From positions 7,080 through 71,079 of the IMG/VR virus record IMGVR_UViG_3300031616_000003: DNA of 64,000 nt; one strand, given 5' to 3'. The position numbers and the translations under genes were made by a program. The notes under the pieces are model-generated. The model searched no databases. It saw nothing but the letters and a program-made list of their open reading frames with translations, and had not been told where the DNA came from. This stretch comes from a virus. This document shows positions 2,286 through 47,703 of this stretch, piece after piece; the first letter of the stretch is position 1, and each line of letters begins with the position of its first letter.

Positions 2286-3386
2286 TCAGGAGTTGTCGTA
2301 GCGGGGCGTGAACGCCATCCGTACGCGGGTGTTGGCCCCGGCGCCGTCGACCTCCAGGCCGATGACGTTGGGTCCGTCGGTGAGCGGCCACAGCTCGGTG
2401 CCGGAGGTGTTGAACCAGTCGATGAACTTCGACAGGTTCGCGTCGCCGGGGCCGCGCACGGTGGGCCGGTCGGTGGTGATCGTGATGGTCTGCTGATCAC
2501 CCAGCGTGTAGGTCAGCGCGAAGCGGGTGCCCAGGGTCACGTTCCAGGCGCGTAGCTGCGTCATCGGGCCGGTGATGGTCCAGGTCGGCCAGGCGTCGAC
2601 GTCGCCGGTGTTGTTGATCGTGGTCAGCGAGGCGGGGTTGTCGGTGCCGCCGCCGCTTCCGCCGGAGTTGCCGCCCGAGTCCGGGTCGTCGTCGGTCGGC
2701 GGAGTGCCCGAGCCCACCACGTTGCTGCTGCTCAGGCTGATGAACGGGGCGTAGAAGGTGATCGGGTCGTCGTTACCGCCGGCCCCGCCACCGGGGTCGC
2801 CACCGGGGTCGGTCCCGGTGGTCGTCGGCGTGAACGTGCGTTCGGCCACCACGGAGGTGCCGGAGCGCCACTTGCCGTCCGGGCAGTACAGGGTGATAAC
2901 CGGCCGGGCGAACAGGTGGTTCTGCTCGCTCTCGCCGCCCAGGCCGTCGGAGTAGAAGCACTCGATCTCCCGGACGGTTCCCGACGGGCGCTGCACCCGC
3001 AGGATCCCGGGCCGCTGGCGCCGGGTGGTCAAGGTGAACGCCCTCGAGATGCGCCGGTAGCGGGTCACGAACTCGTCGTGGGTCCGGCCGAAGATCTCCA
3101 TCGGCCACTGCAGGACCGACGGCTTGTTCTGGATGGAGCGGATCGCCTCGCCGCCACGCGGCAGGGTATCGGTGGTGATCTCGATGGGGGCCGCGCCCCA
3201 GCCGGCCGGGCCCATCAGGGTGAACCAGCCGAGGGTCTCGCTGGTGTTGCTCAGCGCCCACTCGCGCCCGTCCGGGTCGATCCACGTGAAGACCGGCGCG
3301 CCGACCGTCTCGTGGTAGGCCACGGTGGGCGGGGTGACGATGTCCTCGGGATTGACGACGACCAGACCGCCGGCGAGCAGTGGCAT
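2286..3386 (-). CDS. Distal tail protein (Dit-like)
   Basis: Directly after tape measure; NTGDVDAWPTWTITGP and ELWPLTDGPN motifs typical of actinophage Dit. Confidence 0.8.
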   Translation of the reverse strand: MPLLAGGLVVVNPEDIVTPPTVAYHETVGAPVFTWIDPDGREWALSNTSETLGWFTLMGPAGWGAAPIEITTDTLPRGGEAIRSIQNKPSVLQWPMEIFGRTHDEFVTRYRRISRAFTLTTRRQRPGILRVQRPSGTVREIECFYSDGLGGESEQNHLFARPVITLYCPDGKWRSGTSVVAERTFTPTTTGTDPGGDPGGGAGGNDDPITFYAPFISLSSSNVVGSGTPPTDDDPDSGGNSGGSGGGTDNPASLTTINNTGDVDAWPTWTITGPMTQLRAWNVTLGTRFALTYTLGDQQTITITTDRPTVRGPGDANLSKFIDWFNTSGTELWPLTDGPNVIGLEVDGAGANTRVRMAFTPRYDNS

Positions 3387-42612: not shown

Positions 42613-43038
42613 TCAGAAATTACCCTCAGCGCACTGGAAAACGGTGAGGCCCAGCCGGCGCCACATCCGGACGACCTTGTCCCGGTCGTCGACCACGAAC
42701 GCGACGTCGTAGTGCGGCAGGACGCGTTCCTGGTACAGCTCGAGCTTGACGACGTCGTCCGGCCGGTTGTCCTTGTGCGGGCGCATGATCAGCTCTCGGA
42801 ACCAGACCTGCTGCTCGCCCAGGCTCCGGAAGGTGGCCTCGTAGCAGACCTCGTCACGACCGGACATCACCACGATCTCCAGGTCGCCGGCCTTGATGAT
42901 GCTGTGGGCCAGCTCGACCACGGCCTCGTTCGGGGTGTCCTCGCCGACTCGGTGCCAGTCGTAGAACTTGCGCCCGCCGGTGTTCTTCATCAGGGTGCCG
43001 TCCACGTCGAACAGCACCACGCGGGGCTTAACGATCAC
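42613..43038 (-). CDS. Standalone polynucleotide 3'-phosphatase (T4 PNK C-terminal HAD-like)
   Basis: DVDGTL, SGR, MR...D.RPD.VVK, DDR..VV.MWR and GNF. Confidence 0.88.
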   Translation of the reverse strand: MIVKPRVVLFDVDGTLMKNTGGRKFYDWHRVGEDTPNEAVVELAHSIIKAGDLEIVVMSGRDEVCYEATFRSLGEQQVWFRELIMRPHKDNRPDDVVKLELYQERVLPHYDVAFVVDDRDKVVRMWRRLGLTVFQCAEGNF

Positions 43039-43264
43039 TATGGTTCTCCCTGGCCATGAAGGTCCACGCCCATCCCTGGGTGTAGTCGCAGTCGCCGCGA
43101 GGGCAGTGCCAGCCCTCGCCGGTAGCAACGAGCGAGACGCCCGATTCGTGCTGGCGGTCCTGGCCACGGCCGCAGGTGAAGGGGTGGAAGGGTCCGTGTT
43201 CCTGGTATTGGTTCAGCGCCGCGGCGACTTCCGGGCCCCAGGGGGCGAAGATTTTGTCCGGCAT
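43028..43264 (-). CDS. Hypothetical Zn-binding protein
   Basis: HPFTC..LVAT..GW.C..C.YTQ.WA. Confidence 0.75.
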   Translation of the reverse strand: MPDKIFAPWGPEVAAALNQYQEHGPFHPFTCGRGQDRQHESGVSLVATGEGWHCPRGDCDYTQGWAWTFMARENHSDR

Positions 43265-45131: not shown

Positions 45132-45223
45132 GTTCGTCCGGCCTCCTCAAGTTTGAGACAGCGTACAACATCAGGTGCGACAGACCGGCACGTGCCACGA
45201 TCACGTGAAATCCCAGCATGCAA

Positions 45224-45447
45224 TAAACGAAAACCCCCTGCATAGCTCTTGCCATACCCGGGGATTAAACGGACATCGCGCGATAGCAAGTGCCATCCGA
45301 GGGTTTTCTGTTTATTCGGCCGGACCGACGTTCGCGCAGGTCAGGCCCTACGCGAAAATTCCGGAAACTCGGCCATAGCAAGTGCCATACCCGGGGTTTC
45401 CGCAGAAAACCCCCGGATGGCACTTGCTATGCAGGGGTTTTCGTTTA
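45224..45447. repeat. Four copies (3 direct, 1 inverted) of ATAGCAAGTGCCAT(A)CCNGGGG within an outer inverted repeat
   Basis: Copies at about 45241, 45282 and 45374, inverted copy at 45405-45431; outer TAAACGAAAACCCC(C)TGCATAGC / GCTATGCAGGGGTTTTCGTTTA. Confidence 0.85.
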
Positions 45448-45656
45448 ATTCCTCACCAGGTGGGACTCTCGCGTACCCTGGGGCAAGGTCGGAGGCGTGC
45501 TAGCCCACCCCTCCCCACCCTGCGCTCCACGGGTCGTTGGTCCGTCCCTGTCGGCCGCGCGAGGCGAAGACCCGGGCGCCCTCCCCCTTCCAGTGCCGCC
45601 CGGGTCCACGCCCGGTGATGTCACGACACACCTGTATGCTCCTTCGAGGAAAACCC

Positions 45657-45685
45657 TTGTGCGCCAGGCGTGGATCACCTACGGT
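45657..45685 (+). promoter_or_regulatory. Putative housekeeping-sigma promoter of the leader/tRNA operon
   Basis: TTGTGC-N17-TACGGT. Confidence 0.45.
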
Positions 45686-45719
45686 TGGTGTCAAGCAGAA
45701 CTAGACGAGGAGCCCCGAG

Positions 45720-45848
45720 ATGTATCGCTGGCACGCCACGAGCAACCCGCAGCACATGCTGCCGGGCTCGGCAGCCTGCGCCCTCGGGACAATCAACTTC
45801 GTCCGCGATGAGCAGTCCCGCAAGCCCGGAACGAGGCGGCGCCCCTAG
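45720..45848 (+). CDS. Putative attenuator leader peptide (42 aa, all 20 amino acids)
   Basis: GAGGAG RBS; MYRWHATSNPQHMLPGSAACALGTINFVRDEQSRKPGTRRRP*. Confidence 0.7.
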   Translation: MYRWHATSNPQHMLPGSAACALGTINFVRDEQSRKPGTRRRP

Positions 45849-45862
45849 CGCCACGGTCACAC

Positions 45863-45898
45863 AGACGCCGCCTCCGAACTCGGAGAGCGGCGTTTTTT
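45863..45898 (+). terminator. Intrinsic terminator (attenuator) before the first tRNA
   Basis: GACGCCGC-CTCCG-AACT-CGGAG-A-GCGGCGTT with T6 tract; 5' arm can alternatively pair with 45833-45841. Confidence 0.8.
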
Positions 45899-45930
45899 CG
45901 TAGGTCAAACAACTGAATAGGCACCACCGA

Positions 45931-46003
45931 GTGGGTGTAGTTCAACTGGTAGAGCAGCTGCCTCCAAAACAGCAAGTTGCAGGTTCGAGTCCTGTCGCCC
46001 GCG
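45931..46003 (+). tRNA. tRNA-Trp(CCA)
   Basis: Cloverleaf; loop CTCCAAA. Confidence 0.9.
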
Positions 46004-46105
46004 CGTACGGTCCCCCGAGAACCTTTGGGCATGGACATGGCACCACTTGAGAACTGCACAGTGGAATGGCATGAGATCGCCCGGCGGTACGCCGCCGGGC
46101 GCAAT

Positions 46106-46178
46106 GGGGCCTTGGCGCAGCTGGTAGCGCGTCGGTATGGCATACCGAAGGTCGTGGGTTCGAATCCCGCAGGCTCCA
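46106..46178 (+). tRNA. tRNA-Ala(GGC)
   Basis: Cloverleaf; loop ATGGCAT. Confidence 0.9.
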
Positions 46179-46183
46179 CTCAC

Positions 46184-46256
46184 GCTCGTGTAGCTCAGTT
46201 GGGAGAGCGCTGCTCTGAAAAGGCAGAGGCCGCCGGATCGATACCGGCCGCGAGCA
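46184..46256 (+). tRNA. tRNA-Phe(GAA)
   Basis: Cloverleaf; loop CTGAAAA. Confidence 0.88.
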
Positions 46257-46306
46257 CGTCGTCGCCGGTCTGGTCAGGGCGCCATCCCTGCCGGCGGCGG
46301 CTCCAT

Positions 46307-46381
46307 GGGCCACTGGAGCTGTTGGCAAAGCTCATCTCGTTCTCAGCGAGAAGATCGTCGGTTCGAGCCCGACGTGGCCTA
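46307..46381 (+). tRNA. tRNA-Glu(CTC)
   Basis: Cloverleaf; loop TTCTCAG. Confidence 0.88.
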
Positions 46382-46390
46382 CGCAACAAT

Positions 46391-46461
46391 GCGGACGTAG
46401 CTCAATGGCAGAGCTTCTGTCTTCCAAACAGACCACGCGAGTTCGATTCTCGTCGTCCGCT
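46391..46461 (+). tRNA. tRNA-Gly(TCC)
   Basis: Cloverleaf; loop CTTCCAA. Confidence 0.9.
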
Positions 46462-46468
46462 CTTTCGC

Positions 46469-46545
46469 TCCGGGTTGGGCTGTTGGCAGGCTCGACGGGG
46501 TTTTGGTCCCCGGTACAGACGCGGGTTCGAATCCTGCACCCGGAA
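46469..46545 (+). tRNA. tRNA-Gln(TTG)
   Basis: Loop TTTTGGT; atypical D and variable regions. Confidence 0.78.
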
Positions 46546-46550
46546 CAAAT

Positions 46551-46623
46551 GCCGCCGAAGCTCAGCTGGTTGAGCACCCGCATGGTAAGCGGGAGGCTGA
46601 GAGTTCGAATCTCTCCGGTGGCT
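46551..46623 (+). tRNA. tRNA-Thr(GGT)
   Basis: Loop ATGGTAA. Confidence 0.88.
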
Positions 46624-46635
46624 CGTAAATGCAAT

Positions 46636-46708
46636 GCGGCAGTAGCTCAGTAGGTAGAGCGCGACGTTGCCAACGTCGAGGTGGCGGGTTCGAGACCCGT
46701 CTGTCGCT
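46636..46708 (+). tRNA. tRNA-Gly(GCC)
   Basis: Loop TTGCCAA. Confidence 0.9.
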
Positions 46709-46751
46709 CTCGCCCCGGTATCTTTTGATCAAAGAAAAGGAGGTGATCCCG

Positions 46752-47192
46752 GTGAGCGACGTCCTGGTCATCAACGCCGACCTGGGGCCCCTGCACCGGG
46801 TGCCTCTGAAACACGCGATCCGGATGCTGGTCCGCGAGGTCGCCGAGATCCACGACTTTGAGCCCGACAAGCTGATCGGCATCTTCCCGATGCCGCGGGT
46901 GGTCCGGCTCATCCGGTACGTCTACACGAAGTGGCGACACACCAGCGGTCCCGGTTGGTCCCGGGCCGGCGTGCTCAAGCGTGACGGCGACCGCTGCGGC
47001 TACTGCCGCGGCGCGGCCACCACGGTCGACCACATCCAGCCGCGCTCGCGCAGCGGCCGCAACAGCTGGAAGAACACCGTGGCGAGCTGCTACCGGTGTA
47101 ACCAGGCCAAGGCCAACCGCACGCCGGCCGAGGCCGGCATGAGGCTGCTGGTGACCACCGCAGCCCCCACGTGGGCTTCTCTCGCCCACTGA
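46752..47192 (+). CDS. HNH endonuclease within the tRNA array
   Basis: AAAGGAGGTG RBS; RD...CGYC, TVDHI.PRSR.G.N.W.N and CYRCN motifs. Confidence 0.92.
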   Translation: MSDVLVINADLGPLHRVPLKHAIRMLVREVAEIHDFEPDKLIGIFPMPRVVRLIRYVYTKWRHTSGPGWSRAGVLKRDGDRCGYCRGAATTVDHIQPRSRSGRNSWKNTVASCYRCNQAKANRTPAEAGMRLLVTTAAPTWASLAH

Positions 47193-47194
47193 TC

Positions 47195-47273
47195 GCCAGG
47201 CCGACGCCCTGTTGCCGCGGGGCGCGAGTTGAAGGCGCGGAACAAGCACGCCCGCGACGTCGGCCTGGCCCCA
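47195..47273 (+). ncRNA. Unclassified tRNA-sized structured RNA candidate
   Basis: 12-bp closing stem GCCAGGCCGACG/CGTCGGCCTGGC with internal hairpins; ends CCCA. Confidence 0.4.
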
Positions 47274-47274
47274 T

Positions 47275-47347
47275 TCCCCGCTGGTGTAACTGGCAGCACG
47301 CCTGATTCTGGATCAGGAAGCCTTGGGTTCGAATCCTGGGTGGGGAG
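47275..47347 (+). tRNA. tRNA-Gln(CTG)
   Basis: Loop TTCTGGA. Confidence 0.88.
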
Positions 47348-47403
47348 CGTTGACCCTGCGCTGTCATGCTGCCAGCCCGCGAGAGCCGGGCCAGGGTCCA
47401 CAT

Positions 47404-47537
47404 GCCGGGGTAGTTCAGCGGAAGAACACCGCCGCCTCTCGCCTCAGCGTGGTCTGGCCAGACGCGCACGGGGCCCGGGTGTACAACCGGGAGGTTCGCA
47501 GGCGGAGGTCGCAGGTTCGAATCCTGTCTCTGGCCCA
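47404..47537 (+). ncRNA. tRNA-like RNA with a 67-nt structured insert replacing the anticodon loop
   Basis: Acceptor GCCGGGG/CTCTGGC, D arm, CCGCC/GGCGG stem, AGGTC and T arm GCAGGTTCGAATCCTGT all intact. Confidence 0.75.
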
Positions 47538-47539
47538 AT

Positions 47540-47612
47540 GCCGATGCAGCTCAGCAGGTAGAGCACGCCACTCGTAATGGCGAGGGCTCCGGTTCGAGTC
47601 CGGACTTCGGCT
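47540..47612 (+). tRNA. tRNA-Thr(CGT)
   Basis: Loop CTCGTAA. Confidence 0.87.
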
Positions 47613-47617
47613 CTCAT

Positions 47618-47701
47618 GCGCTCGTGGTGGAAATGGTAGTCACGCCGGTTTCAGAAACCGGTCTCCGCGAGGAGGTGGGAGTTCGACTCTCCCCGGGCGC
47701 A
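47618..47701 (+). tRNA. tRNA-Leu(CAG)
   Basis: Loop TTCAGAA; long variable arm. Confidence 0.9.
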
Positions 47702-47703
47702 CT

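Follow-up and report, generated by a model that had tools for sequence, protein, structure and literature searches.

Transcription of a phage tRNA operon is probably governed by a ribosome-controlled attenuator that keeps the prophage operon off until translation falters, and that is conserved, similar to the wblC leader and tuned to the content of the tRNA array. What large tRNA sets do for the phages and plasmids that carry them has long been asked, the candidate answers being codon supply, stress survival and the replacement of tRNAs cut by host nucleases. A regulator reveals the condition for which an array is built. Under an attenuator the array should stay silent while translation runs normally and be induced when tRNAs run short or ribosomes stall, which makes the purpose of the array testable codon by codon. 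Such an attenuator would also bring leader-peptide attenuation to operons of stable RNA, provide a case of a prophage that draws on the WblC stress response and supply, in only 42 codons, a sensor that covers translation stress broadly.

The window (the whole stretch of DNA analysed, 64,000 nt) comes from a temperate actinophage. It belongs to a 71-kb virus record, 51% complete, with genes for portal, major capsid, terminase, DNA polymerase III alpha and tyrosine integrase, and two relatives are classed as proviruses. The host is probably a member of Micromonosporaceae, because the nearest relatives of the HNH protein in named genomes are mostly from this family (best 80 of 575). ARAGORN finds 30 tRNAs on the plus strand and a profile search adds Cys and Tyr, giving the 32 tRNAs counted in an earlier note made from the sequence alone. 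DNA similarity to named phages and plasmids was confined to tRNA stretches. Contigs from four RNA runs (5-7% word share) derive from other organisms, and the leader is touched by one short piece at most. The features of the region are as follows.

45649-45654, plus strand: A/T-rich tract GAAAAC just 5' of the -35 hexamer, candidate WhiB7/WblC-type site
45657-45685, plus strand: predicted SigA/HrdB-type promoter (motif), -35 TTGTGC, 17 bp, -10 TACGGT
45707-45712, plus strand: Shine-Dalgarno GAGGAG, 7 nt 5' of the ATG (sequence; duplex -7.9 kcal/mol)
45720-45848, plus strand: leader ORF, 42 codons, 20 of 20 amino acids, 30 distinct codons
45833-45841, plus strand: antiterminator strand, complementary to the terminator 5' arm 45866-45874 (exact 9-nt match; duplex -20.8 kcal/mol)
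45838-45852, plus strand: small hairpin across the stop codon, competing with the antiterminator at the window locus (folding)
45863-45898, plus strand: intrinsic terminator (attenuator), hairpin 45863-45895 and U-tract 45893-45898
45931-50031, plus strand: array of 32 tRNAs, Trp first, all 20 isotypes (ARAGORN and profile search)
46047-46063, plus strand: TTGAGAACTGCACAGTG, near copy of a host 16S-23S rRNA spacer motif, after the first tRNA
46755-47192, plus strand: HNH endonuclease gene within the array, used as family marker (Pfam HNH, E 3.6e-11)
49484-49566 and 49861-49934: tRNA-Tyr and tRNA-Cys with unusual D-arms, both missed by default ARAGORN
50200-50303, plus strand: Y RNA (YrlA)-like element (Rfam RF02553, 48 bits, E 1e-8; below the gathering score of 69)
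50373-51977, plus strand: Ro60/TROVE gene, 3' of the array on the same strand (Pfam TROVE, E 2.8e-12)

Several further elements were seen around the array. A complementary pair, CAACTGAATGACGAGCAG ... CTGCTCGTCATTCAGTT, flanks the YrlA-like RNA (50160-50337) directly 5' of the Ro60 start, and CAACTGAAT occurs both in this region and 5' of tRNA-Trp. A tRNA-like element with about 60 extra nt in its anticodon arm lies at 47404-47535 (Rfam tRNA, 44 bits; missed by ARAGORN), and weak tRNA-like calls are found at a similar place in three relatives (L004, L006, L167). The window also holds a polynucleotide kinase-like gene (42613-43167) and a lone tRNA-Met on the minus strand (58310-58387). In the relative L008 the Tyr slot of the array (~10401) has an AAA anticodon, called as Phe, and the leader of L008 lacks Tyr.

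The GAGGAG site and the 42-codon frame are present as the earlier note described them, with 20 amino acids (nine of them once only) in 30 codons. Eight proteins are similar to the leader peptide, one of them nearly identical to the query and all without a Pfam domain. All 20 amino acids are found in 0.49% of 42-codon draws under phage codon usage, in 78 of 13,864 overlapping windows of real phage genes, in 0.05-1.2% of random stop-free DNA and in none of 3,136 host-gene windows. Thirty distinct codons arise in 0.35% of cases under phage codon usage vs 31-69% in random DNA, and are weak evidence by themselves because they are so common in the latter; the family-wide mean is 29.5 vs 26.9 after shuffling, and the codon count was given little weight. 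Since a chance of about 0.5% is itself weak after a genome scan, relatives were sought. Seven of the 32 array anticodons have no dedicated codon in the window leader, so that the claim of a response to the loss of almost any tRNA is too strong.

The terminator hairpin 45863-45895 (-24.7 kcal/mol, z -6.0) is matched in stability by none of 200 shuffles, and its U-tract ends 32 nt before tRNA-Trp, which agrees with the first description. A simple terminator scan missed this hairpin, whose stem carries a bulge. The consensus from 20 hand-picked relatives is the outer 9-bp stem, with compensatory change at two pairs. The exact complementarity of 45833-45841 to the terminator 5' arm was verified in the sequence; in shuffled leaders, a 9-mer of this kind falls within the final 30 nt with p 0.0004. 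No Rfam cis-regulator, T-box or other, matched upstream of 45931 at E<=1.

Folding was modelled with an assumed transcript start at 45692 and a ribosome footprint of 10 nt. With the transcript ending at 45878, where only the 5' arm is out, predicted antiterminator pairing is 0.58-0.93 for ribosomes stalled at codons 3-35 and 0.00 from codon 36 on; a 12-nt footprint shifts the masking edge to about codon 33-34. At transcript end 45885 pairing varies from 0.03 to 0.90 by stall codon, and in the full-length transcript all modelled states favour the terminator, so that read-through must be kinetic. Antiterminator and terminator are thus mutually exclusive in silico, with masking by a ribosome at the end of the ORF, and the modelled sensing zone would be codons ~3-34. 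The last ~8 codons would be blind, and the single Lys35 is borderline because stalls from about codon 34-36 mask the antiterminator. The small hairpin across the stop codon was considered as a conserved anti-antiterminator, which is not established: it is found at 62 of 89 loci vs 1,362 of 2,311 internal control positions (59%).

The attenuator layout belongs to a conserved family, in which frame and stop-to-terminator spacing are kept and the peptide drifts. Family loci (n=149) were defined by an HNH protein at least 50% identical and were drawn from viral, genome and metagenome collections, leaving out duplicates and loci with <330 nt upstream. A fixed rule was applied, based on terminator strength, Shine-Dalgarno strength, length and stop-to-terminator distance and never on amino-acid content. 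A short ORF with an initiation signal 5' of an intrinsic terminator was recovered in this way at 89 of the 149 loci, in Micromonosporaceae genomes, phages and metagenome contigs: 49 of 62 with at least 10 tRNAs, 26 of 32 with 2-9 and 14 of 55 with 0-1. Three loci were dropped for gap length. Among the 13 large-array failures, five (L143, L147, L148, L171, L209) show leader and terminator by eye, and one (L043) shows neither by eye. TROVE is a poor family marker, with an array at only one of four loci.

Leaders are mostly 39-45 codons long, and the gap from stop to terminator is 12-24 nt with a peak at 20 nt. Among 20 disjoint pairs, internal indels are multiples of three in 6 of 8 cases in the leader vs 3 of 71 in the flanks, and pN/pS is 0.80, so that the peptide sequence is nearly free. 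The terminator 5' arm pairs better with the real than with the shuffled leader at 79 of 89 loci (0.74 vs 0.57), and the best-pairing window lies 3-24 nt 5' of the stop in 66 of the 89. The cognate antiterminator/terminator pair exceeds the non-cognate mean in 48 of 89 (p 0.026, uncorrected for kinship); covariation is weak because the core is nearly invariant. At eight loci (L071, L109, L115, L117, L119, L121, L127, L139) promoter, leader and terminator are kept before the HNH gene although the tRNAs are gone, which suggests that the HNH protein is itself part of a translation-stress response.

A WhiB7-type promoter and an rRNA-spacer motif are layers that the first description missed. Promoters of the WhiB7/WblC regulon have an A/T-rich motif ~3 bp 5' of a TKG -35 element, a 16-19 bp spacer and TANNNT (PMC7157823 and PMC3905903, in the parts available). 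The window promoter has this layout, its GAAAAC lying 2 bp (the A-run 3 bp) before TTG, and is the sole match in the 71-kb contig to TTG-16/19-TANNNT with at least four A/T at -9..-4. Among the family leaders, 77 of 89 have TTGNNN-17/18-TANNNT, with a spacer of 17-18 in 75 of the 77. At least four of the six tract positions are A/T in 74 of 77 family promoters vs 1 of 16 housekeeping tRNA promoters, and the means are 4.9/6 and 2.4 (p 5e-10, uncorrected for kinship); the housekeeping set comprises those 16 of 47 tRNA units that have such a promoter, and the genome background, which contains array promoters, was left out. WhiB7-like proteins are present at the two host-family loci examined, the Krasilnikovia wblC promoter looks the same, and the 51%-complete contig itself gave no WhiB match. 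From the tract, it is probably host WblC/WhiB7 that boosts the array promoter; a UP-like element or a phage operator is another possible reading. A promoter downstream of 45898, from which the tRNAs could be transcribed directly, was looked for by motif: apart from the leader promoter, the interval 45250-50400 contains no promoter-like match, and 45840-45931 contains no -10-like hexamer. A cluster of 26-50 nt direct and inverted repeats lies at 45220-45450, between a divergent gene block and the array promoter, and is a possible operator or origin.

The rRNA-spacer motif is found near the first tRNA in 45 of 75 arrays, with 0.003 expected per window. Three host genomes have 11 matches to its pattern; of the five loci checked, four are in rRNA spacers just before 23S and one is in another tRNA array. 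We take the motif to resemble an rRNA boxA/processing stalk, and by analogy it could protect the long untranslated array transcript. In two mycobacterial plasmid arrays (L248, L249), which have no leader by the rule, a similar motif lies upstream of the first tRNA.

Taken together, the anatomy, conservation, statistics and folding models would fit the following course. RNA polymerase would start at the promoter 45657-45685, probably boosted by WblC/WhiB7 via the A/T tract, and a ribosome loaded at the Shine-Dalgarno site would trail it through the 42 codons. On reaching the last ~8 codons or the stop, the ribosome would cover 45833-45841, the terminator would fold and transcription would end 32 nt before the first tRNA. 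An earlier stall, caused by a shortage of charged tRNA or by an antibiotic block, would leave 45833-45841 free to capture the emerging terminator 5' arm, and polymerase would continue through the 32 tRNAs and the HNH gene, probably as far as the Y RNA and Ro60 genes. The peptide sequence would matter little, the leader being selected for many amino acids and preferentially for those that the array supplies. The stall-switch of the earlier note is supported in its layout, its masking near the stop and its breadth, as far as sequence and models go; what does not stand is an invariant set of all 20 amino acids and sensing by the last ~8 codons.

The closest competitor of this reading is a general translation-stress attenuator that answers mainly to ribosome antibiotics, as wblC does, and has its breadth as a by-product. 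We regard it as possible but doubtful. It accounts for the WblC-type promoter tract, and it agrees with the antibiotic induction of the WblC regulon, which includes six tRNA genes (PMC7157823, available part), and with the chloramphenicol induction of the long Anabaena array (PMC8421152, available part). The persistence of leaders after tRNA loss (at 14 of 55 loci with 0-1 tRNA) also points to it.

The composition of the leaders argues against breadth as a by-product. Where the array has at least 17 isotypes (n=27), leaders contain 18.7 amino-acid types vs 16.6 after shuffling with the base composition of every codon position preserved, and the real leader is higher in all 27 cases. Host-gene windows have a mean of 15.0 types, and 1.2% of them reach at least 19. 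Completeness varies, with 20 types in six of the 27 full-array leaders, 19 in nine, 18 in nine and 17 in three; the breadth asserted in the earlier note is therefore above chance, but the full set is not a fixed feature. When the last 8 codons are excluded, Lys is missing in 13 of 26 and Phe in 13 of 26 full-array leaders. Among 12 close relatives (54-83% identity), seven keep 20 types and all 12 keep at least 19, where neutral drift starting from the window leader expects 0.6 and 3.0; seven of the 12 came from peptide similarity, which favours rare residues and biases the count, and all 12 are linked by common descent. Of the five that came from the HNH search, two have 20 types and all five at least 19 (expected ~0.15 and ~0.9). 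Rare residues in these relatives change position rather than vanish, as in a Tyr/Phe swap, which also argues against a by-product.

Leader composition also follows the tRNAs that are kept, an effect that looks real but modest in these sequence comparisons. Leaders contain on average 18.5, 17.5 and 14.5 types where a complete array supplies 17-20, 11-16 and 1-10 isotypes, respectively (n=22, 13 and 20). In phylogenetic contrasts over 55 loci, based on an HNH tree of 432 DNA columns in which 17 of 61 inner forks are open, isotype number and leader diversity correlate with r 0.38 (p 0.004), and with r 0.54 when 12 Dactylosporangium loci are removed. With the effect of array size removed, an amino-acid-specific association persists, by frequency (partial r 0.15, p<0.001, also without Dactylosporangium) and by presence (r 0.07-0.11, p 0.001-0.035). 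The 13 Dactylosporangium-type leaders, whose arrays are reduced to Trp, Leu, Ala, Ser and Arg, have Leu and Ser doubled and lack Gln and Cys; they also lose the GC-rich Pro (2.6% vs 8.3%), which GC drift would not explain, and the reduction counts as one event. Counter-examples are Catellatospora (7 isotypes, leaders with 17-19 types) and Krasilnikovia (3 isotypes, 18 types). Besides its reduced array, Krasilnikovia has a larger one (L493), which is preceded by a separate leader and promoter; the layout is present there, but the leader has only 16 types.

The simpler leaders of reduced arrays could instead reflect joint decay of array and leader once the element is fixed in the chromosome, an extension of the antibiotic reading that we hold to be similarly questionable. 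It draws on tests that were not significant: tip pairs comparing leader composition with array content (14 vs 8 with 16 ties, p 0.29) and underpowered binary independent pairs (p 0.125 and 0.5). The excess over shuffles, tested by contrasts, gave p 0.11. It is opposed by the amino-acid-specific association that survives removal of the array-size effect. The antibiotic reading is compatible with the proposed attenuator, and both inputs may act.

A function for the peptide itself, as a nascent arrest peptide or small protein in which the conserved early Trp, the PQ and the terminal RW/RR do the sensing, is unlikely. In its favour, the leader ORF has a GC3 of 0.88 and the phage clade keeps a 14-residue core nearly unchanged; over the whole family, Trp is within the first six codons in 38 of 89 leaders and RW or RR within the last seven in 61 of 89. 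Against it, pN/pS is 0.80, the antiterminator sequence itself accounts for the terminal residues, and the peptides of distant leaders look little alike by eye. A further reading takes the hairpin as a fixed, leaky terminator or a processing signal, which a protein antiterminator, either host Nus factors or a protein of the phage, would override. It would suit the rRNA-spacer motif within the array, the recurrence of GAAAACCC in the repeats at 45220-45450 and the dominance of the terminator in equilibrium folding, but is very improbable: the motif sits downstream of the terminator, and conservation extends to the RBS, the open frame, the frame-keeping indels and the spacing from the stop. The companion idea, with an incidental ORF and the A/T tract serving as a UP-like element or as an operator of the phage, has just as little to recommend it, since among five close loci the repeats are clear only in the window and L006, whereas the tract is family-wide.

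Outside the family, 35 distant arrays were examined, of which seven have no terminator, nine a terminator without an ORF and 19 both; in most of the 35 the layout is not convincing. Among the 19, four leaders have 20 types and seven at least 19, and several look like chance. Those with 20 types are 51-66 codons long, with shuffle p values of 0.03-0.06. Leaders with 19-20 types precede unrelated arrays in Pseudarthrobacter, Arthrobacter and Euzebya plasmids and Tyr-first viral arrays, which suggests wide spread or repeated invention; the leaders of L247, L028 and L015 were read by eye after re-anchoring and are leads only. In L021 a small ORF with, by eye, many Ser, Leu, Tyr and Cys codons (~3005-3090) lies directly 5' of a Ser-Leu-Ser-Cys-Tyr-Leu array, with no terminator by the rule upstream of the array. 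It is an evenly balanced proposition that long phage and plasmid arrays generally carry a compact "codon inventory" leader, selected to include at least one codon for each amino acid served, which allows transcription on a shortage of the tRNAs that the array can replace and shrinks with the array. We give equal weight for and against the view that in Micromonosporaceae phages this inventory is combined with a host WblC-type promoter in front of it and a spacer signal of the rRNA type behind it.

Among known systems, the trp, his, leu and ilv attenuators regulate enzymes of biosynthesis through leaders in which one to three amino acids are over-represented. The phage system shares with them the choice of terminator or antiterminator by a stop-proximal ribosome position, but favours breadth and has tRNA as its output; the window leader shows no enrichment of the trp/his type, with 20 of 20 types and nine of them single. 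Mycobacterial tRNA array units are mobile actinobacterial arrays with HNH genes, as is the phage array, and the main texts describing them make no mention of a leader or attenuation (PMC5966550, PMC12803027); no such leader was found by the rule in the two mycobacterial plasmid arrays examined. The L-array trn operon of Anabaena PCC 7120 is likewise long and linked to an HNH gene, normally silent and induced by translational stress, but according to the available part of the report it is controlled by promoter repeats and the TrcR repressor (PMC8421152). A repeat search found no tandem repeats over 45680-45695, the place of a TrcR-style -10/start site, and the words "attenuat" and "leader" are absent from the main text of PMC8421152 and PMC10272220. 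No description of a leader-attenuator on a tRNA array was found in a literature search that covered main texts and few subscription papers.

The nearest parallel is the attenuator of whiB7/wblC, which combines a broad uORF, an intrinsic terminator and an antiterminator formed on stalling (PMC11550727, 10.1101/2023.06.02.543512, in the parts available) with an A/T tract 5' of the -35 (PMC3905903, PMC7157823, likewise). Its uORF senses many amino-acid shortages, the composition of the uORF setting which of them induce, and in M. smegmatis includes 19 of the 20 amino acids (10.1101/2023.06.02.543512, available part). The tRNase VapC5 induces whiB7, which the authors link to the uORF (PMC10287673, available part). 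The principle of broad stall sensing, of which the earlier note was not aware as a described design, is thus published for whiB7/wblC. In Krasilnikovia, the host wblC gene shares the promoter layout of the phage array and is preceded by a uORF of 92 codons in which all 20 amino acids occur. In contrast, the phage leader has ~42 codons, differs by eye in its end and terminator, controls a tRNA operon instead of a transcription factor and has a composition that follows the downstream tRNA set, a link for which no earlier report was found. The phage leader works like that of whiB7/wblC but, with tRNAs downstream and as compared by eye with the Krasilnikovia leader, is not a member of that family.
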